Shown here: in pieces, positions 3,013 to 63,675 of the stretch
Position numbering within the stretch: position 1 is the first letter of the stretch
How the letters are laid out: each line of letters begins with the position of its first letter
Source of the DNA: a virus
DNA: 64,000 bases
Strand: one strand, 5' to 3'
IMG/VR virus record: IMGVR_UViG_3300024346_000009
The notes under the pieces: model-generated
Database searches by the model: none
Seen by the model: the letters and a program-made list of their open reading frames with translations, nothing else
Told to the model about the DNA's origin: nothing
Program-made: the position numbers and the translations under genes

Positions 3013-3473
3013 ATAAAGTTTTTGGTCAGGGAGTAGCGGAGGGTATCACTGAGGTGTATAAAGAGCCATCAATGTCTCCTTTTGATTTTATAAATGCAAT
3101 TACCTTTAATAAGAACGATTTAATCGTCGATGAATGGTCAGAAAAACAATACATTCCTTACATTATTAATAAGGGTCTATCGTATGGGGTCGATACAGTA
3201 ATTCCAGCTAATGAGATGAATGCGCGCCCACATATCGGTAAGAAACTCCAATTCCAATTTTTAATAAATAGTATTAGACCTAGAAAACGCTTTAACAAGT
3301 GGATAAAGGCTGAAAAGATTGAATCGATAGAAGTAATTAAGACATACTATGGCTATAGCACTGAGAAAGCCCGCCAGGTACTCCCCCTTCTTGATCAGTC
3401 AAAAATTGACTACTTAAAACAAAAATTAGAAAAAGGTGGGATTTATAATGTCAAACGAGTATTTCAAGATTGA
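3003..3473 (+). CDS. 62: clamp loader small subunit gp62
   Basis: YIPYIINKGLS, ANEMN, YYGYSTEKA; synteny. Confidence 0.93.
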   Translation: MDINKVFGQGVAEGITEVYKEPSMSPFDFINAITFNKNDLIVDEWSEKQYIPYIINKGLSYGVDTVIPANEMNARPHIGKKLQFQFLINSIRPRKRFNKWIKAEKIESIEVIKTYYGYSTEKARQVLPLLDQSKIDYLKQKLEKGGIYNVKRVFQD

Positions 3474-45700: not shown

Positions 45701-46429
45701 ATGAGTTATAACTTTACCTTAGCCCAGCTATCGCTTCTAATAAGAGAGCCTGGGGAGTCCGAGAACTGGTACGAGCCTCTTTGTGCGGCAATGGATCAGT
45801 ACGAAATTAACAGTGCAATAAGAATATCTTCTTTTCTTACTCATTGTGCCTACATGACAAAACGATTTACAGAAATGGAAGAAGACTTAAGCTACAGCGC
45901 TGAAGATTTAGTAAAGACATGGCCTAATATATTTACAGTAGAAAATGCTGTATCATACGCCGGTAATCCCGAAAAGATTGCTAATAAAGCGTACAGCAAT
46001 ATACTGGGTAATGGTTCAGAAGAATCAGGTGATGGTTATAAGTTCAGAGGACGCGGCCTGTTAATGATTCGCGGTAGAGGTGATTACACTACATGTTCAC
46101 AGACTCTCTTTCGGGATTCAAGATTGGTAGATACACCAGATTTAGTAAAAGAAAAACCTACCTGTATTGATTCAGCTGGTTGGTTCTGGTCTACAAATAA
46201 TTATAACGTAAGGTACGATGCTGATACGAAGTATGTGCAATTTGGTATGCCAGGTAATACTACTTTTGTTGCTAATACTATACTAGATAATACAGTAAAT
46301 ATTCCGAATATTAATATTATTAATACCGGCGGTAAGTCAGAGGCAGCATTGACCAGTAGAGAATCACAATCCGCAATCAGTAACTATTCATCGCTCTTAC
46401 CCTTCATACTGGAAATAACTAAAGTATAA
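45701..46429 (+). CDS. GH19 paralogue, catalytic Glu lost
   Basis: Colinear with 45074 protein but HES is YMT and QLTG is MIRG. Confidence 0.8.
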   Translation: MSYNFTLAQLSLLIREPGESENWYEPLCAAMDQYEINSAIRISSFLTHCAYMTKRFTEMEEDLSYSAEDLVKTWPNIFTVENAVSYAGNPEKIANKAYSNILGNGSEESGDGYKFRGRGLLMIRGRGDYTTCSQTLFRDSRLVDTPDLVKEKPTCIDSAGWFWSTNNYNVRYDADTKYVQFGMPGNTTFVANTILDNTVNIPNINIINTGGKSEAALTSRESQSAISNYSSLLPFILEITKV

Positions 46430-47966: not shown

Positions 47967-48509
47967 ATGGTAAAGACTTTTAATCTATTTTTAAAAATAG
48001 GTCTTGTGGTATTAATGGTATTTTTAGTTACCAAATTTACCACCAATAGAATCGACTATTATAATACTAAGCAATATAATGGTACCCCAATCACAATGGA
48101 GGACAGAGAAAAGCAGTTGACCTGCTTAGCAAAGAATATCTATCACGAGGCGGCTACAGAGCCGTTTGAGGGTAAGGTTGCAGTAGCTCAGGTTACATTA
48201 AACAGGGCAGCCTCTGGCAAGTTCCCACCCAATATATGCGATGTAGTTTATCAAAAGAATGTTTTTTATGGTAAAGTCATCTGCCAGTTTTCATGGTATT
48301 GTGAAAGTGGTCCTAAAGTTAAATCTAATGCTCACTACAAGGAGTCAATGGAAGTGGCTAAGAAAGTACTTTTAGAAAACTTTAGATTACCCTCAATGCA
48401 TAAAGCAATGTACTATCATGCTGATTATGTAAACCCTAATTGGAATCTTCCAAAGATCAGTCAAATCGGTCGTCATATATTTTACGGTGAGAAAAATGGA
48501 AAAATTTAA
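47967..48509 (+). CDS. cell wall hydrolase (SleB/Hydrolase_2)
   Basis: CLA.NIYHEA, VAQV.LNR, CQFSW, IG.HIFY. Confidence 0.92.
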   Translation: MVKTFNLFLKIGLVVLMVFLVTKFTTNRIDYYNTKQYNGTPITMEDREKQLTCLAKNIYHEAATEPFEGKVAVAQVTLNRAASGKFPPNICDVVYQKNVFYGKVICQFSWYCESGPKVKSNAHYKESMEVAKKVLLENFRLPSMHKAMYYHADYVNPNWNLPKISQIGRHIFYGEKNGKI

Positions 48510-51464: not shown

Positions 51465-53987
51465 TTAGTATACCGCTATCTTATTTGAGTACCTATCGAG
51501 CGCAGATCCTGTATATTCCGGTCGTGGTGTAGGCTTAGATGGCATAAACTTTGTAGTATTATTACTACTAACGTTATTAGATACAACGGTATTATTAGCA
51601 CCACCCTTAGATGCATCTCTTTCCATATCGGCGTTTTCGGTAGAAGTTTTAGCAACATCTTTTCCGGTTAGAATAGGGGAACCTTTACCAACATTACCCT
51701 CAACATCTAGGGTTGATGGGGCAAGCGCTTGAGCTCTTGCTTCTTTTATCTCTGTTAATTTCTTTCTAGCACCTTCAACATCACCTTTTTTATTAAGTTC
51801 TTGAAGTTGATTATATTCCTGTTTAGTTACTTCAGTGTCATATTCTGCACTATCACCACCCGTACCGCTCATCTCACTAGATACTTTATAGGTATCTTTA
51901 CCAAATAGACCACCAGAAATTCTCTGGCCAAGCATGCTTCCGTAATTAGCTTCGGTCTTGTTGATTTGTTTACCTTCAACTTTACCTTCTACCACTTTCT
52001 CATCAGATGATGTACCTAAAAAGCTGCCTGATTCTTTACCCTTTGCAGTAAACAAACCACCAAGGAATGTACTACCGAGTACAGACTTTTGTGCTGTGAC
52101 CCCTTCTTTATTACTAGCTGTTGAGGTAGTTGCCTCTAACCCAGGTCCTCGAGATATTGATTTATCGCTAGTAGCCACTTCACCTGTACTACTTACCATT
52201 TGATCAGCCATGGCAACACCCTTTGCCTGATCGTTTAAACCTATACCGCTGTTATAAACACCCTTAACCTTATCACCAATACCACCGAAGAAGTCTCCAG
52301 CTGCATTAATAGCTTTGCCGCCGTATTCCCCAACAACCTTACCTGCTTTAGATCCAGCAAATGCTCCTAGGGCTCCGCCTGCTATACCACCGATAGCTGT
52401 ACCAACACCTGGTACTATTGAACCAATTGTAGCACCGAGGGAGGCACCAGCAATAGCTCCGGCTGCCATACCAGTACCTTCACCTATTGCGCCACTCTTT
52501 TCAACAGTAGCTGTATTACCTATTTCTTTTCTTGCAGCTGCAGCTTCTTCTGGCTTCATTTCACCAGAGTCAAACTTAGCCTGAACCTCTTCCATTTTAG
52601 CTTGCTTACTATCTTCGGCTGCTGTATATCCTTCGTATGCAGTATATGCACCTAGGCCAACTGCTGCTGCTGCACCCAGTACCTTACCTGTATTACTAGT
52701 TGCAAACTTAGCCAGCTTACCGCCCATACTTGCTACCTTACCAGCACCTCCCTTTTTGCCCACCAAATCCATTGCACCTGAAGCTAAGTCACCTACAAGA
52801 GAACCTTTCTCATCCTCTTCTTCTTTCTTCGCCGATGGAGCACCCTTTTGATCGGTAATTTCAGCTGGTGTTTTAGGTGCTAAAGCATCTCGTATTTCTT
52901 TAAGCGTTGTTAGTTGCTCTTTTGTAGTCTCAAGCATCTGCTTAGATAACTCAAGATCACTCTTAGCAGCATCAGCAAGGGCTTCACCTGATGATGTAAC
53001 ATTATCACCTTCTGGGTTAGCAGCCTCTGGTGATTTCTCTGCGGGACTTGATACCTTACCTTCCCGTTCTTTTTTCTTATCCTCTGGTGGCTCCTCGTAC
53101 CCAATTAAATGATCTCTTATCCTGCCAGGGGTCGCTTTTACCTCGTCCTTAAACGTTGCAAAGAAGCCTCTATTATCCGTCTGTTCTTCATCATTTTTTT
53201 CTTTAGGTTCTACCCCACCTGTAATCCCTGCTACACTACTTCTTTCTCTACGTGCTCTTTTAATAGATGTATTTCTACCTTCAGAAGGTCCCTGATCATC
53301 ACCTAAATTACCACCCAAAGCTTCAGCTGTTGCTCCACCAGGTCTAGTTGATGTAACGCTGGTTATTAAATTTAATTTATTATCTTTTCTAGCCCGTTCA
53401 CCCTGCCCAGATAAGGTATCTCTGGCAGTTTCAAAATCTAAAAAGCCACCATCTTTAGATGTCTTGCCTGAGACCTTGCTCTCAATATCTCTACCACTGG
53501 TATTTCTATATTGAGCCGCCTCCTTGTCGTACTCAACACTACCTTCAGTTAATTTTCTTACTAATGAAATCTCTTTTAATTGTTCATCTTGTAACTTATT
53601 AGTGTTTATCCCTATAGCACCCATGGTAGCAACCAGGTGACCACTATCAATAAACTTACCTACATCTGACCCAACATTTTGTACTGCAGCTTTTACGCCT
53701 GTAATAACTTCCTTAAGCCCCTCTAATACCGTAGTTATCCTAGATAATGTATCATTTGCAGTGTCTAGTTGATCTTGAACCTCTATTACATCATCGCTGA
53801 CATCATGTAACCCATCTCTTAAAGAATCTCTTACAGATGAAGTTTCATCTTTTAAGTCACTTAGACTTTCATTGGTTTTATCAATACCTTTGGTAGTTTC
53901 TTTTTGTGCTAAAATCCCACCACCAGTTTGCTCCTTGAGTTTATCAAGGAACGCTTTAAAGCTAGGATCTGCTGATGGAGATTGCAT
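51465..53987 (-). CDS. tail tape measure / gp29-like protein
   Basis: 840 aa coiled coil with Gly/Ala-rich hydrophobic block, Asn-rich C-terminus; downstream of gp26/gp51. Confidence 0.65.
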   Translation of the reverse strand: MQSPSADPSFKAFLDKLKEQTGGGILAQKETTKGIDKTNESLSDLKDETSSVRDSLRDGLHDVSDDVIEVQDQLDTANDTLSRITTVLEGLKEVITGVKAAVQNVGSDVGKFIDSGHLVATMGAIGINTNKLQDEQLKEISLVRKLTEGSVEYDKEAAQYRNTSGRDIESKVSGKTSKDGGFLDFETARDTLSGQGERARKDNKLNLITSVTSTRPGGATAEALGGNLGDDQGPSEGRNTSIKRARRERSSVAGITGGVEPKEKNDEEQTDNRGFFATFKDEVKATPGRIRDHLIGYEEPPEDKKKEREGKVSSPAEKSPEAANPEGDNVTSSGEALADAAKSDLELSKQMLETTKEQLTTLKEIRDALAPKTPAEITDQKGAPSAKKEEEDEKGSLVGDLASGAMDLVGKKGGAGKVASMGGKLAKFATSNTGKVLGAAAAVGLGAYTAYEGYTAAEDSKQAKMEEVQAKFDSGEMKPEEAAAARKEIGNTATVEKSGAIGEGTGMAAGAIAGASLGATIGSIVPGVGTAIGGIAGGALGAFAGSKAGKVVGEYGGKAINAAGDFFGGIGDKVKGVYNSGIGLNDQAKGVAMADQMVSSTGEVATSDKSISRGPGLEATTSTASNKEGVTAQKSVLGSTFLGGLFTAKGKESGSFLGTSSDEKVVEGKVEGKQINKTEANYGSMLGQRISGGLFGKDTYKVSSEMSGTGGDSAEYDTEVTKQEYNQLQELNKKGDVEGARKKLTEIKEARAQALAPSTLDVEGNVGKGSPILTGKDVAKTSTENADMERDASKGGANNTVVSNNVSSNNTTKFMPSKPTPRPEYTGSALDRYSNKIAVY

Positions 53988-54406
53988 TATTGATCCAGGT
54001 TAGGTTTAATTATTGGTCTTCTAATCACAGGCATAGGAGTATCATTGCCAGTATCTGGCGATGAATTAAACGTGGTAGATACTGTCTGGCTTACAGGCAT
54101 CATTGGTAGAGATATGCCGCCGTTGTTTGCTCCGGCTAATTTTTCCTGTGTTCTACCAAATGCAGCAAGCCCCAACACTGCACCCATTGCAATGTGGTAC
54201 AGGCCTGCACCCTGTAAAGTTAGTGGTTGCCATTGTGTAATCTGGCCAACTTTTGCAACAGTTTGTAATAGACTCCATAGTATTGGAAAAATAACAAAGT
54301 CAAAAGTACATGTGGCCATATATAGCCAACCCATCATCGGACGCCACTTACTGTTCATCCAATCTTCTTTTTTTAATTCGCTTGCGCTTTTAACTTCGTC
54401 TGCCAT
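53987..54406 (-). CDS. holin-like membrane protein
   Basis: WRP.MGW..FDF..P..GA.LG..A.GRT.EK. Confidence 0.6.
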   Translation of the reverse strand: MADEVKSASELKKEDWMNSKWRPMMGWLYMATCTFDFVIFPILWSLLQTVAKVGQITQWQPLTLQGAGLYHIAMGAVLGLAAFGRTQEKLAGANNGGISLPMMPVSQTVSTTFNSSPDTGNDTPMPVIRRPIIKPNLDQ

Positions 54407-54606
54407 TATAGATTCCTTGCATTTTGTTTAAGCATTTTAAGCTTTTCATTTTCCTTTTTAATATAGTCAATTAGTAATGAAACGTAAATCTCCCTCTCCC
54501 ATGGCATCATATTTTCTAACTCTGTAAGGCTGTACTTATGATGCTGCATCAGCGAGAAATTTAAAGTAAAGTAGTTAGCTAATGAATCATGTGAGAGGGC
54601 TATACG
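54406..54606 (-). CDS. 51: gp51-like baseplate hub assembly protein (not in track; probably reached by -1 frameshift)
   Basis: RIALSHDSLANYFTLNFSLMQHHKYSLTELENMMPWEREIY; first ATG only at 54549. Confidence 0.85.
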   Translation of the reverse strand, partial: RIALSHDSLANYFTLNFSLMQHHKYSLTELENMMPWEREIYVSLLIDYIKKENEKLKMLKQNARNL

Positions 54607-55295
54607 AAAAAATTCTGTAATCCCTCAAGCCGCGATACATTGTGCTTATTACATTTCGGGCAATCACATTCAATTATCTGTACGATTTTTGGTGATGTAA
54701 CAAAAAACTTTTCCAATTTATCAAACTGTTCTTTAGTTAAAGAGTAAATAAATTCTTCTAATTCTGCCCTAGTTTGATCAGCCGCCTCCCAATACTCGTC
54801 TTTATTGTAAATAGCTTTTACACAATTAATAATTAAATCGATTACCGATTGGTTATCTTTTGATGCAAATACTCCCACAACTTCGTCAATATTGGGGTAC
54901 TTCATTTCAATACCAATATCATCTGTAATATTAATCTTATTACTGTGATCAGGTTTAACTTCAATCTTGAGATCCTCAATACTAAAACTGGTATCAATTT
55001 TAGTACCGCATTCACAATTAATAACTACATCTACCGATTCACCTATAGACTTTGCCCGTAGGTTCATAAAGATATATTCAATATCGAAGTGAGGTAAATC
55101 TTTTACCTTGAGTTCCTTAAAGGTACACACATCGACAAGCTCCCGTATAATTCGTGAAACTTCTTCATTTTCTGCCTCCGACATTGTTAACAGCACCTTA
55201 TGCTCTTTAACAAGAAAGGGTCTAAATTTAATTTTATTACCTGTAGAAGGTAAATTCAATTCATACGTTGGTGTTTCTAATTTTGGTAAAGCCAT
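54600..55295 (-). CDS. 26: gp26-like baseplate hub protein
   Basis: MALPKL..P.Y, RPFLVKE.K, RAKSIGE, LEGL.NFF. Confidence 0.88.
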   Translation of the reverse strand: MALPKLETPTYELNLPSTGNKIKFRPFLVKEHKVLLTMSEAENEEVSRIIRELVDVCTFKELKVKDLPHFDIEYIFMNLRAKSIGESVDVVINCECGTKIDTSFSIEDLKIEVKPDHSNKINITDDIGIEMKYPNIDEVVGVFASKDNQSVIDLIINCVKAIYNKDEYWEAADQTRAELEEFIYSLTKEQFDKLEKFFVTSPKIVQIIECDCPKCNKHNVSRLEGLQNFFV

Positions 55296-55310: not shown

Positions 55311-55967
55311 TTATCTATCAATTCGTCTAGGATCAGCCTTCGCAAACTCTGATCTTGTATTATTAGCCTGAGTAGATGAAAGTTCATCTGGGCTTACAAT
55401 TGTAGGTGTTCTATATGCTGTACTCGATCTCTGTGTATTTCTCCAATACCTGTACGCAAATAATATATTCAATCTATGTGTTTGATTTGTAGCAGCATTA
55501 TTAAGTTCCATTAAATTCATATTTCTTGGAAATGCATCGATTAACTCTACCTCATACGTTACATTTTCTTGTTCGTCTAACTGTCTTATAAAGATACTTG
55601 TAATGTAGTCCCGCTGATACCCAACGGTAAAGTCGTCAGGGTCGATAATAGTATGCATCCAGTTCTCAAAAAATCTTCTAATATCCATGTCCCTATCTAC
55701 GTGAAAGGCAAACGATATCCCCTCGCCCCCGTATTCTGAAGTAACAGGTCTTTGATATGTAGGACCAAAGATCTTAAAAGCTTTAGAGGATATGTTCAGC
55801 ATTGGAAGACTGGCTTGCTCACAATACAAACTTACCATTTCCCCCATACCCGTTGCCTGCATACCAGCGGGAGGAATAATTAAAACTTCAAACCTGTTAG
55901 TTCTTGCTAAACTATCAATGGCGATGGTGGTTCGAAAATCATCTAAGTTAAAATTAGCTTTTGACAT
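55311..55967 (-). CDS. tail tube initiator gp54 / gp19-like
   Basis: ARTNRFEV, C..LP, F..W, DAFP, F.YRYW. Confidence 0.75.
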   Translation of the reverse strand: MSKANFNLDDFRTTIAIDSLARTNRFEVLIIPPAGMQATGMGEMVSLYCEQASLPMLNISSKAFKIFGPTYQRPVTSEYGGEGISFAFHVDRDMDIRRFFENWMHTIIDPDDFTVGYQRDYITSIFIRQLDEQENVTYEVELIDAFPRNMNLMELNNAATNQTHRLNILFAYRYWRNTQRSSTAYRTPTIVSPDELSSTQANNTRSEFAKADPRRIDR

Positions 55968-56551: not shown

Positions 56552-56995
56552 CTAAATCCCAAGATCTTTCTCAGTTAAAACAAGAAATTTCATATCACGA
56601 TCCATACAGTATTCATTAGCCGCCTTCCATTTGGCTTGATTAGTGCCGTATTGGAATACCTCATCTATAAATCTTTGGGTTTGTCGTTTAGGTATGTCGG
56701 GTGGCTTTGTGAATTTCTCGGGTTTTATCTCCACTAAATACTTACTAATAGTATTATGTCTATCTTTTACTCTAATATAGAAGTCCACAAAGTACCGATG
56801 TATCTTGTTATCAACGGGTGACTTATAAGGGATTATCATTGTCTCAGAGCCCCATTCTAGCACCGAGGTATTGGTATCACACCATTTCATAAACCTAAGC
56901 TCCCAGCTGGACCTATAGATAACATCACTGATGTTACCTTTATACTTTGCAGGGTTAAGGACCCTGTACCGACCTTTGTAAGTTGCTTTGTACAT
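56552..56995 (-). CDS. 4: head completion nuclease gp4
   Basis: NP.KY.G, YRSSWE, YFVDF, EIKP, NQAKW. Confidence 0.93.
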   Translation of the reverse strand: MYKATYKGRYRVLNPAKYKGNISDVIYRSSWELRFMKWCDTNTSVLEWGSETMIIPYKSPVDNKIHRYFVDFYIRVKDRHNTISKYLVEIKPEKFTKPPDIPKRQTQRFIDEVFQYGTNQAKWKAANEYCMDRDMKFLVLTEKDLGI

Positions 56996-57047
56996 ATCTT
57001 GATAAATATAATATAATTCACTGTAATCCACTATTTATGGAAAATTC

Positions 57048-60256: not shown

Positions 60257-61342
60257 ATGCAAAGAATATTTAATAAGGATGGGTTTAACTGGTGGATTGG
60301 GGTTGTTGAGGACCGGATGGATCCGGAAAGACTTGGTAGGTGTAGGGTACGTATATTTGGTTATCATACTGATAGTCAGGAATTACTTCCAACTAAAAGC
60401 CTACCCTGGGCAATTCCAATACAGCCTATTACATCAGCAGCTATTTCAGGTATTGGCTCTTCCCCTGTTGGTCCTGTAAACGGTACATGGGTTATTGGTT
60501 TCTTCCTTGATGGGGAAGACATGCAGCAACCAGCTATGTTTGGTACTATTGCTACAAAAGCGGCTAAAGGTGCATTTAAGCAGACAGCTGAGCCACCAGA
60601 GGTTACCAATCCTTCTGATGGTATCTTAAAAGATGGGTCCGGTAACCCCGTGGTAGATGGTCAAGGTGAACCCGTTAGAGCAGGCACTCCCAAGGTAGAG
60701 GGGTGGGTTCTGGGACAGACATCTGAAAGGTATGAATCTGGGGGAAAGGGACCTGGTGTAATAAATGCTTACGTGGGCGCAGCTGGTGGGGATCTTGGTG
60801 GAGCATCTTATGGTACGTATCAATTTGCATCTTATCTACCGGAAGTAATGGCAAGTGGAAAAGCAAGACCTTCTGCTAAAGCTTCACCTGTAATGCAATA
60901 TCTCGGCAGTTCAAAGTTTAAAGATAAGTTTGCCGGGCTTGTACCTGCAACAGCAGGGTTTGACACTAAATGGAGAGAAATTGCATCAACGAATACAGCC
61001 GAGTTTAATGAAGACCAGCATGAGTATATTAAACGTAAGTACTATGATGTGGCGGTTGCTAATCTACAACGGTCAAGATTAGATCTAACTAAGTACGGCC
61101 CGGCTGTTCAAGATTTAATTTGGTCGACAGCTGTTCAATTTGGACCTGCCAATACAACAGCATTTCGCGAAACCCTTCTAGGTAAGAGTCAACTTACTGA
61201 TAAAGATATTGTTACATTGGTGAGCGAATGGAAGATAAAGAATGTAGATGTTTTGTTTAAATCAAGTTCACAATCTATTAGAGATGGTGTTAAGAGTAGA
61301 TACCAATCAGAAAAAGCAGCCTTACTAGGATTAATTAAATAA
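60257..61342 (+). CDS. 5: gp5 N-terminal OB-fold plus lysozyme-like domain
   Basis: GVVEDR.DP..GR.RVR..G.H, GFFLDG..Q.P; YESGG..GGASYG.YQ. Confidence 0.85.
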   Translation: MQRIFNKDGFNWWIGVVEDRMDPERLGRCRVRIFGYHTDSQELLPTKSLPWAIPIQPITSAAISGIGSSPVGPVNGTWVIGFFLDGEDMQQPAMFGTIATKAAKGAFKQTAEPPEVTNPSDGILKDGSGNPVVDGQGEPVRAGTPKVEGWVLGQTSERYESGGKGPGVINAYVGAAGGDLGGASYGTYQFASYLPEVMASGKARPSAKASPVMQYLGSSKFKDKFAGLVPATAGFDTKWREIASTNTAEFNEDQHEYIKRKYYDVAVANLQRSRLDLTKYGPAVQDLIWSTAVQFGPANTTAFRETLLGKSQLTDKDIVTLVSEWKIKNVDVLFKSSSQSIRDGVKSRYQSEKAALLGLIK

Positions 61343-63675
61343 TGGATCCATTAATTACAACGCAAATTAAAGGTGTACTTGAAAATAGTATCTTTAATAA
61401 AATAAATGCGCTTAACCTTAACATTCCTAATGCCACCCTCCGTGCTATTGTTTCACGAGTAGCAGAGGAAACATCATCCTCGGTTGTTAAGGGGGTTGGT
61501 ACTACAGCAAACTTTCAACTTACTGATATTCCTAAGAATCTTATAGGAGGGATAAATCCGGTTGATATAGTTACTGGCAATCAAGGTCCTGCAGGTCTTA
61601 CAAATAATCTAGATGGAATATTACAAACCCAGCTATCTGGTCAAATGACAGATAAAGTTGTAACGGCTATACAAAATCAACTTAGATTAAATCTACCTAA
61701 AGACAAATTTAATATTATTAACTTTGATAATTTAAGTTCAAACCTGGTACAGAGCTTAACCCCTACAATTGGTAAATCAATTACAGCAGCGCTCGGTGGG
61801 TTTGCAAATGCTGTGTTTAGCCGTGGTACAACACCACCATCAACGATATCAAATATTGATTCCTATTTTGCTGCAGGAACTTCCGACCAAGCAATGACAA
61901 ATGTAGACGAAGCTTTTACAAGTGTAACTGCCGATTTAGCATTAGAAGAATCGAAAAGGTTCAGTATTGATACAGTGGAGAACAATGAGAAGCTTGCTGT
62001 ACTCGAGAAGGGGTTTCAAGACCCTGGTGCCACATACCCTACAAAAGAATATTCCGGTATGTCGGAGACAAATAAATTAGCACAGGGTGATGTAAGAGGT
62101 ACGATCGTACAAAAGAAAAATCAAGCCAGGATGATTGGTGCAAAGCTTCCATTTGGTGAAGCATGGGATCAACCTGAATCTGCTTTCAGAGGCGCATATC
62201 CATACAATAAAGTAACCGAAACAGAATCCGGCCATGTGATTGAGGTAGATGATACCCCGGGGTCTGAACGACTTCATATCTATCATAGGTCAGGTACGTT
62301 TATAGAAATTGATGCTAATGGATCGGTAGTAAAAAGAGCGGTCGGATCGTCGTACGAGATTATAGACAAGAACGGTAAGATTGCAATTAGTGGTAAGGCA
62401 GATATTTCTGTTAATGGTGAGTGCAATATCTTTGTTGGTAATGATGCAAATATCGAAGTTGAGGGTGATGTGAATCTTACCTGTCATAATGACATTACCG
62501 CACAGGCGGGCGGCACTTTAAACCTATCAGCAACAGAAGAGGTTAACATTACAGGTGCTAATGTTAACGTTCAAGCATACGAAGTCTTGAATATGACTTC
62601 AAACACAGCATTAAATCTACATGCCACAGAAGATATTAACATGCTTGCAAATACAAGCATTTATGTACAAGCTGTCTCTGTATATCAGAATACAACTACA
62701 ACATATAACCAAGCAGATAATTTCTACAATTATGCTAATGAAAGTATTTTCACCCAGGCAGAACAAGATATTAATACCAAGGCAGCTGGTGATTTAAAGA
62801 ACCAGGCTACAGGGGTAATTAGTAATAAAGCGGGGGGTGAGTTTACGGCGGATGGTAATGAAACACATTTACAATCCGGTCATTCTGTCGATGCGGAAGA
62901 TTCACTTACCAGTGAGCCTGCTGCAATTGCGGGTATATCTAATATAGGTATTTTATCAGGTCGTAAAGATATTAGCTATATCGATATTAGCGATCCTCAG
63001 GCAATGACCCTTGCTGATAATAAATCATTGTTATTGGAAGAGCAAACTCAGACAGGTCAGGATTATACTAATCAAAAGAATCTTATTATCAGTGGTGGTT
63101 ATGCAACTGCAGCTGATATCGATAAAGGTCCAGTTGCTGTAGATAGTACCTCTGTACAGTCTACACAAGGTACGACTGTGGCGCAAGATGAAAATCTTAA
63201 GAAGGCAACCCAGCTTCCAGGTAATTATAATATCTCCCCTAACTTTACAATTGAGATGCTCTCCAATAAAGCAGCGGTGACAAGGGATGTTATTCAAGCT
63301 CAAGCAGGTCTAACATATGGAGAGATTGTGTATAACTTACAAGGGTTAGCACTCAACGTACTTGAGCCAGTTAAAAAGTTATATCCAAATATGTTTGTAA
63401 CCTCGGCATTTAGACTACCGGGTAATAACGCTACATCTCAACACCCAAAAGGGCTAGCAGCAGATATTCAGTTTAAAGGTGCTACTAAGAAAGAGTATTA
63501 CGAAATTGCTCAACAGATAGCTAAAGTACTACGTTATGATCAGTTCTTACTTGAGTATTGTAACTACACTAATAATCCATGGATTCATATATCGTTTACA
63601 CCTACTAATAGATTACAAGTACTTACTTTCTTCAACCACAAGACCCATTCCCAGGGCTTAACACAGTTAGCATAA
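61342..63675 (+). CDS. gp5 C-terminal part (beta-helix spike) with peptidase M15 domain
   Basis: YPYN.V.ETESGH..E.DDTPG.ER; SAFR..SQH..G.AAD..WIH. Confidence 0.82.
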   Translation: MDPLITTQIKGVLENSIFNKINALNLNIPNATLRAIVSRVAEETSSSVVKGVGTTANFQLTDIPKNLIGGINPVDIVTGNQGPAGLTNNLDGILQTQLSGQMTDKVVTAIQNQLRLNLPKDKFNIINFDNLSSNLVQSLTPTIGKSITAALGGFANAVFSRGTTPPSTISNIDSYFAAGTSDQAMTNVDEAFTSVTADLALEESKRFSIDTVENNEKLAVLEKGFQDPGATYPTKEYSGMSETNKLAQGDVRGTIVQKKNQARMIGAKLPFGEAWDQPESAFRGAYPYNKVTETESGHVIEVDDTPGSERLHIYHRSGTFIEIDANGSVVKRAVGSSYEIIDKNGKIAISGKADISVNGECNIFVGNDANIEVEGDVNLTCHNDITAQAGGTLNLSATEEVNITGANVNVQAYEVLNMTSNTALNLHATEDINMLANTSIYVQAVSVYQNTTTTYNQADNFYNYANESIFTQAEQDINTKAAGDLKNQATGVISNKAGGEFTADGNETHLQSGHSVDAEDSLTSEPAAIAGISNIGILSGRKDISYIDISDPQAMTLADNKSLLLEEQTQTGQDYTNQKNLIISGGYATAADIDKGPVAVDSTSVQSTQGTTVAQDENLKKATQLPGNYNISPNFTIEMLSNKAAVTRDVIQAQAGLTYGEIVYNLQGLALNVLEPVKKLYPNMFVTSAFRLPGNNATSQHPKGLAADIQFKGATKKEYYEIAQQIAKVLRYDQFLLEYCNYTNNPWIHISFTPTNRLQVLTFFNHKTHSQGLTQLA

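Follow-up and report, generated by a model that had tools for sequence, protein, structure and literature searches.

The window analysed here is a 64,000-nt part of the IMG/VR record IMGVR_UViG_3300024346_000009, an uncultured virus of 159,688 bp that is 96% complete. Its minus strand carries a gene for a 231-aa protein of the T4 gp26 family, whose 3' end runs into a second open reading frame (ORF) that lies in the -1 frame and is related to T4 gp51; the two meet at a slippery heptamer, T_TTT_TTC (Table 1). Taken together, what can be read from the sequence makes it very probable that these are not two genes but one gene for a tail assembly chaperone (TAC), decoded in two ways, which would yield a 231-aa short form and, by -1 ribosomal frameshifting, a 296-aa long form. 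The exact sequence of the window is carried by marine metagenomes, and its closest cultured relatives belong to the Kyanoviridae, namely Pelagibacter phage Mosig and the T4-like cyanophages.

Anatomy of the gp26-gp51 junction

The gp26-like protein matches PF12322 (T4_baseplate) with E 4e-60 and 203.7 bits (cut-off 24.5), its residues 9-230 covering profile positions 2-218 of 219, and it matches phrog_150 with E 1.9e-63. The gene ends AAT TTT TTC GTA TAG, and from position 54606 the -1 frame translates as RIALSHDSLANYFTLNFSL, with its next methionine at 54549. Nineteen codons thus precede the first ATG, and no purine-rich Shine-Dalgarno (SD) sequence lies before it. These features were the starting point of the original prediction, which had the gp51-like sequence begin right at the heptamer and the ATG stand without an SD, and all of them can be read directly from the DNA. 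The extension matches the gp51 family phrog_634 (E 1.6e-27) from its residue 2 onwards, and it also matches profile positions 235-276 of phrog_150, the gp26 family itself. Joined at the heptamer, gp26 residues 1-230 and the 66 residues of the extension would make a protein of 296 aa with the junction LQNFF-RIALSHD, for which the predicted junction peptide is LQNFFRIALSHD. The heptamer by itself is unremarkable, TTTTTTC occurring 22 times in the window where 23 copies are expected; it is its place, its phase and its conservation that are remarkable.

Conservation of the slip site among relatives

We compared the window with 80 loci that have a complete junction (77 IMG/VR contigs together with Mosig, P-SSM2 and S-T4), in which gp26 is 40-82% identical to that of the window, and with 26 further loci from other clades, found via gp26 of Cronobacter phage LPCS28, Aeromonas phage avDM6 and Acidovorax phage ACP17; across all 106, gp26 identity falls to about 28-40%. 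The heptamer is in phase in all 80 relatives as it is in the window, with gp51 homology in the -1 frame beginning at residue 1 or 2 past it, and the distance from heptamer to gp26 stop is 10 nt in 79 of them and 31 nt in Mosig. All 26 loci from other clades have the same -1 arrangement, two of them with T_TTT_TTT as the heptamer. T_TTT_TTY is therefore in phase in 106 of 106 relatives, and the phase of the junction, which was expected to be shared across T4-like genomes, does not vary among them. The cultured phages with this arrangement are Mosig, P-SSM2, S-T4, ACP17, LPCS28, avDM6 and the KVP40-like Vibrio phage K491, which likewise keeps the heptamer.

Conservation extends to the choice of codons. 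When 56 distinct junctions are aligned without gaps, the heptamer codons prove invariant (AAT in 53/53, TTT in 56/56 and TTC in 56/56), while every other conserved degenerate codon in the alignment is written with at least two synonyms. Elsewhere in the same alignment TTC is a rare way to write phenylalanine, being used in 2 of the 56 sequences at another conserved Phe, and another conserved Asn divides 30:26 between AAT and AAC.

A conserved run of T is also what one might look for if it were RNA polymerase that slipped, adding one U on T6 so that some mRNAs encode the fusion in one frame, and the protein so made would be identical. Nonetheless, the run is always in X_XXY_YYZ phase, is not lengthened in 104 of the 106 relatives, and shows no insertion or deletion variant in the contigs examined, though contigs hide rare variants. 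In bacteria, efficient slippage is known on runs of about nine, and six is shorter. We consider transcriptional slippage very improbable.

Improbable to the point of being almost negligible is an artefact, a real fused gene that looks divided only because its T run was sequenced wrongly, or a pseudogene. A DNA contig from an independent sample matches positions 54363-55000 with no differences and no insertions or deletions (indels), so that assembly error is excluded, and the T6 run with its -1 arrangement recurs in 106 independent loci that include the finished genomes of cultured phages. What might be held to speak for an artefact is the presence, in a public protein collection, of twelve proteins of about 300 aa in which gp26 and gp51 are fused in one frame. 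These are singletons, no two of which switch frame at the same residue, a scatter to be expected of random indel errors. We considered the same twelve proteins as evidence for the long form and set them aside on the same grounds, as probable indel errors near the T run.

In GenBank the -1 extension behind T_TTT_TTC is unannotated in avDM6 (positions 2190-2370 of locus L091), ACP17 (3245-3415 of L085) and LPCS28 (3190-3369 of L086), and each of these records has an apparent gap of 150-160 nt where the extension sits.

Coding before the first ATG

For the 56 sequences we examined the stretch of 16 codons that separates the gp26 stop from the conserved Met. Stop codons in this stretch number 0 in the -1 frame, as against 97 and 94 in the other two; the ratio of synonymous to non-synonymous change is 0.82 in the -1 frame, as against 0.13 and 0.07; and third-position entropy in the -1 frame is double that of positions 1 and 2. 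Judged by these patterns, the 19 codons before the ATG evolve as protein, and do so in the -1 frame only. No ATG, GTG or TTG stands ahead of the conserved Met in 39 of the 56 sequences. Several relatives have a TAA of the -1 frame right against the 5' side of the heptamer, so that the frame opens precisely at the slip site. This conserved segment would most simply be translated by entry from gp26 at the heptamer.

The principal alternative is that two separate proteins are made and never joined, the gp51-like ORF being translated from ATG 54549 as a 47-aa peptide, or by re-initiation after the gp26 stop. Public records do annotate the small ORF as a gene of its own, the Met20 codon is ATG in 51 of 56 relatives, and K491 has an ATG at the third codon of its extension in addition to the heptamer. 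Against this stand the conserved codons upstream, the 39 sequences with no start codon ahead of Met20, the five in which Met20 itself is replaced by GTT, ATT, GTA or GTC, and the missing SD; the invariant synonymous choice in the heptamer would also be left unexplained. A separate 47-aa peptide could, of course, exist alongside frameshifting. As a replacement for frameshifting we regard separate translation as unlikely, with somewhat more to be said for it than for transcriptional slippage.

Colinearity with T4-type gp51

In a Tequatrovirus genome (G4507), gene 25 comes after gene 26, and the group 51-27-28-29 is transcribed divergently from both, so that no fusion of 26 and 51 is possible there. 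The T4-type gp51, a protein of 249 aa, is itself a PF12322 match from residue 1 to residue 201 (E 1.2e-54), while the segment 201-244 can be aligned with residues 1-45 of the -1 peptide (E 1e-4). T4-type gp51 is thus colinear with the predicted fusion, from which it follows that T4 gp51 would be the in-frame equivalent of the long form and T4 gp26 that of the short form. Separate translation of the two ORFs would leave this exact colinearity unexplained. Only one PF12322 gene is present in the 96%-complete genome, and a long form could therefore come only from recoding.

The frameshifted extension also accounts for two oddities in the literature. Sullivan et al. 2010 (PMC3037559) described cyanophage and vibriophage gp51 as lacking the first ~200 aa of T4 gp51, cyanophage gp51 as having some 20% of its length, and gp51 as missing in Aeh1. 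In avDM6, which is Aeh1-like, T_TTT_TTC is followed by the extension, for which the record has no annotation. A short cyanophage gp51 and a gp51 reported missing in Aeh1-type phages are both explained if the extension is reached by frameshifting. In Acinetobacter phage vB_AbaM_DLP2 (positions 666-1421 of locus L093) the T4-type gp51 homologue is labelled 'tape measure protein assembly chaperone', so that the chaperone reading has already entered some annotations.

The view from which we set out, that gp26 and gp51 act as equivalents of lambda G and GT, thus draws support from the 106 loci, from -1 frame coding, from colinearity with T4 gp51, from the single PF12322 gene, from its place upstream of the tape-measure-like gene and from the published assignment of gp26 and gp51 as TACs of T4-like phages, and to a lesser degree from a weak likeness to the HK97 chaperone.

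A weak resemblance of the N-domain to tail assembly chaperones

That likeness comes from a predicted structure. An AlphaFold2 (AF2) model of gp26, built with 24 sequences, is a confident one and has a predicted local distance difference test score (pLDDT) of 85.6 and a predicted template modelling score (pTM) of 0.81. When residues 1-93 of the model were aligned to 48,161 chains (VIA-align wide), the top four were 3fgx, an uncharacterised Bacillus protein (Z 6.9, 83 residues aligned, root-mean-square deviation 3.4); 2ob9, the tail assembly chaperone of HK97 (Z 5.8); 3klu, which is YqbN of B. subtilis (Z 5.8); and 5ir0 (Z 5.2), all of which lie below the trusted Z of 8. YqbN is presumably an XkdN-type prophage chaperone, and the HK97 chaperone pair is annotated with a -1 frameshift (structure 2OB9). 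A second structural search of the PDB with the model again returned 3fgx only, Foldseek of the model against the PDB gave no match at E <= 0.001, and a search of the ESM Atlas with the N-domain gave no usable match. In the comparison with tail assembly chaperones the HK97 and YqbN proteins are thus among the top four, with a Z of only 5.8 and with an empty Foldseek search on the other side. The resemblance of the modelled N-domain to the HK97 chaperone fold is weak, suggestive of membership in that fold and not sufficient to establish it. At the level of sequence, the gp26 family profile found nothing among all PDB chains even at E 10, and single members gave faint matches to Phage_TAC_15 (E 0.09), Phage_TAC_4 (E 0.11) and phrog_20192 (E 0.02).

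Points that weigh against frameshifting

A number of observations weigh against the frameshifting interpretation. Contigs from RNA libraries cover positions 54390-54592 at 100% identity, and none bridges the slip site, so that they are mute on expression, on co-transcription and on how long the U run is in RNA. Vibrio phage K493 (positions 3190-3230 of locus L087) and Dickeya phage Coodle of the Ackermannviridae (2270-2310 of L092) have no slip site; their gp51-like ORF is still in the -1 frame, and its ATG overlaps the gp26 stop (TAATG), an arrangement that also favours separate translation of the two ORFs. These two lineages probably produce the C-terminal module as a peptide on its own, and the fusion is thus not to be treated as obligatory everywhere. 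Alignment of the gp26 family to the HK97 chaperone family with hhalign gave a probability of 0.05, with no detectable sequence homology to classical TACs, and in an AF2 model of a fused relative the extension forms three low-confidence helices (pLDDT 44-74) that are undocked on the gp26 domain.

The SD-like GAGGGA was proposed to act as in dnaX, and both the motif and its 8-nt spacing from the heptamer are as described. The same letters encode a conserved Glu-Gly, relatives have GAAGGN or GAGGGN at this position, and T4-type gp26, which has no slip site, carries AGAGGA there. The motif is therefore not specific evidence for stimulation, and a stimulatory role, inseparable as it is from the coding of Glu-Gly, is possible but unsupported. 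It had further been proposed that GAGGGA might pair with the CCCTC just after the gp26 stop. CCCTC is present, but in a GAGGG:CCCTC hairpin the slip site would lie inside, and CCCUCUC is given another partner, a downstream GAGAGGG, by the single-sequence fold and by RNAalifold alike; we do not favour this hairpin.

Further downstream, the minimum free energy (MFE) fold places a long-range helix between the arms CCCUCUCACAUG and CAUGGGAGAGGG, and this is the sole consensus helix that RNAalifold finds in the 56 sequences, with 88.8% of cells paired, as against 41-69% in slid controls, and with one pair showing C-G to U-A exchanges. Of 80 distinct junctions, 53 have the 3' arm as the best duplex partner of the 20 nt that follow the slip site, the median duplex energy being -18.9 kcal/mol, as against -10.0 for shuffled arms. 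Covariation in the helix is not significant, however, since 85-97 of 500 shuffles reach the observed values. Pairing is lacking or weak in other clades, both arms are conserved coding sequence, which also counts against the helix, the local fold of the window is unexceptional (z -1.43), and Rfam has no match over 54300-54800 at E 1. The downstream helix is a candidate only, and no stimulatory element is established.

Gene order and neighbourhood

On the minus strand the genes follow one another as gp4 (head closure), gp2 (DNA end protector), a 218-aa tube-fold protein, gp26, the -1 ORF, a 139-aa protein with three predicted transmembrane (TM) segments and an 840-aa tape-measure-like protein (Table 1), while gp48, gp53, a hub-like protein and two gp5-like proteins are encoded divergently from the gp26 strand. 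The pair had been placed upstream of a probable tape measure gene, and so it is, with the 139-aa gene alone between them. The matches of the 840-aa protein to tape measure families are weak; from its size, composition and position it is the probable tape measure. The Mosig homologue of the 218-aa protein is annotated as a baseplate tail tube initiator, and the major tube gene, gp19, is located elsewhere in the genome and not beside gp26. The ATG of the 139-aa gene overlaps the stop of the extension (TAATG), and the end of the gene abuts the next start at 53987. Despite its match to a holin family, its position suggests a protein associated with the tail or the tape measure and not a lysis holin.

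Table 1. Features at and around the gp26-gp51 junction, in coordinates of the window
Feature	Position	Strand	Remarks
218-aa tail-tube-fold protein (gp54-like tube initiator)	55311..55967	-	directly upstream of gp26; phrog_45 tail tube, E 1.3e-34
gp26-like gene, predicted short form (TAC-N), 231 aa	54600..55295	-	stop TAG 54602-54600; PF12322, phrog_150
SD-like GAGGGA	54621..54626	-	8 nt 5' of heptamer; codes conserved Glu-Gly
Slippery heptamer T_TTT_TTC, X_XXY_YYZ phase	54606..54612	-	Phe229 in P site, Phe230 in A site
-1 frame extension (putative TAC-C, gp51-like)	54406..54606	-	66 codons and stop TAA 54408-54406
Candidate long-range helix, 5' arm CCCUCUCACAUG	54588..54599	-	begins 6 nt past heptamer; MFE fold
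First ATG of -1 ORF (Met20 of extension)	54547..54549	-	19 codons precede it
Candidate long-range helix, 3' arm CAUGGGAGAGGG	54492..54503	-	Pro-Trp-Glu-Arg codons
139-aa protein, three predicted TM segments	53987..54406	-	PF11351 GTA_holin_3TM, E 1.8e-7; phrog_3427
840-aa tape-measure-like protein (probable gp29 analogue)	51465..53987	-	weak PHROG matches to tape measure families, residues 404-558

Elsewhere in the window, gp5-like functions are split across two adjoining plus-strand ORFs, one of 361 aa (60257-61342) that corresponds to the N-terminal region of gp5 and one of 777 aa (61342-63675) that comprises the middle of gp5 and an endolysin-like C-terminus. Two more endolysin-like genes on the plus strand (phrog_181 at 45701-46429 and phrog_938 at 47967-48509) lie near the replication genes gp59 and gp32. 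The gp4 head-closure protein (56552-57031, minus strand) matches PF08722, a TnsA-like endonuclease N-terminal domain, with E 4.4e-20.

Discussion

Regardless of what may stimulate it, a general scheme for the decoding of this gene can be proposed. Consider a ribosome that nears the end of gp26. In most cases it would read on to the TAG and release the 231-aa TAC-N. In a minority of cases, with tRNA-Phe on UUU in the P site and on UUC in the A site, both would re-pair one base back on U_UUU_UUC, and the slipped ribosome would go on to read the 66 codons of the -1 frame and release the 296-aa TAC-NC. If lambda gpG/gpGT and T4 gp26/gp51 are a guide, the two forms would both cover the tape-measure protein as hub and tail tube are initiated, the long form would use its helical C-terminal tail to bring in a further component of tail or hub, and neither form would be expected in the virion. 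How the junction is built, that it is conserved, that the -1 frame codes and that T4-type gp51 is colinear with the predicted fusion are shown by the sequences. That the ribosome slips, how often it does so, what stimulates it and what the products bind are matters that we infer.

A frameshifted gp26/gp51 is a new example and not a new principle, the identification of TACs in T4-like phages having been published in 2022. As cited in two later papers (PMC10885494 and PMC12846349), Vladimirov, Gautam and Davidson (Virology 2022;566:9-15; PMID 34826709) identified gp26 and gp51 as the TACs of T4-like phages, in the form of TAC-N and TAC-NC. The PRFect paper (PMC10885494) says of that work that some T4-like phages have a short gene and a longer fused gene in place of frameshifting, and the 2025 paper (PMC12846349) refers to it where it says that TAC-N genes in T4-like phages have -1 slip signals with polyT. 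If the 2022 paper leaves out the frameshift of cyanophages and pelagiphages, the present census would be its first documentation.

The practical value lies in annotation. Where a recoded 296-aa chaperone is probably made, public entries for Kyanoviridae and other T4-like phages show either a 'baseplate hub assembly catalyst gp51' of 45-57 aa or nothing. T4 has for long been named as the exception to G-T frameshifting (PMC5009743); in this context it would represent a derived state in a superfamily that has mostly kept the slip.

A broader suggestion, tentative and in our view rather doubtful, is that the T4 superfamily provides the C-terminal module by three interchangeable routes: a -1 slip on T_TTT_TTY, which is the route in most clades sampled; an in-frame duplicate, as in T4; and a free peptide of about 50 aa begun at TAATG, as in K493 and Coodle. 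If it is true that the free peptide works, the covalent link between N- and C-terminal parts, thought central to the function of G and GT, would be dispensable, and the conserved internal Met of the window might likewise yield a free peptide beside the fusion.

Comparison with known systems

In E. coli dnaX the heptamer A_AAA_AAG is accompanied by an upstream SD-like element and a downstream hairpin, and the window has counterparts in the GAGGGA 8 nt on the 5' side and a possible helix 6 nt on the 3' side. The difference is that here both elements are candidates only, the helix closing a loop of about 84 nt without significant covariation. Phage P2, which has a contractile tail, offers a likeness: its E/E+E' pair, which Christie et al. 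are reported to have described in 2002 (J Bacteriol 184:6522), reportedly arises by a -1 frameshift in a chaperone gene upstream of the tape-measure gene, with the slip on a run of T; the P2 protein family is unrelated. Set against classical TACs in general, gp26 is some 100 aa longer and has extra domains with CxxC pairs, and the 3-TM gene separates the pair from the tape-measure-like gene.

In organisation there is a match with lambda gpG/gpGT (Levin et al. 1993; Xu, Hendrix and Duda 2004; reviewed in PMC5009743). In lambda a short and a long form arise from one start, as they would here. Both systems have an X_XXY_YYZ heptamer within a few codons of the first ORF's stop, and a second ORF that overlaps the first one's end in the -1 frame without a conserved start codon. 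The lambda genes lie just upstream of the tape-measure gene, and the pair in the window lies upstream of the tape-measure-like one. The heptamers differ, being G_GGA_AAG in lambda and U_UUU_UUC here.

In the review by Atkins et al. 2016 (PMC5009743), G-T frameshifting is conserved in long-tailed phages with T4 excepted, and it is with T4 that the window shares its proteins. T4 gp26 and gp51 belong to the same family, PF12322; they too comprise a short form and a long form, the latter with a C-terminal tail of some 50-65 aa that aligns to the -1 peptide; and their genes also lie beside hub and tape-measure genes. The difference is one of means: T4-type phages keep two separate, divergently transcribed paralogous genes, whereas in the window both proteins would come from a single gene by way of a -1 slip.

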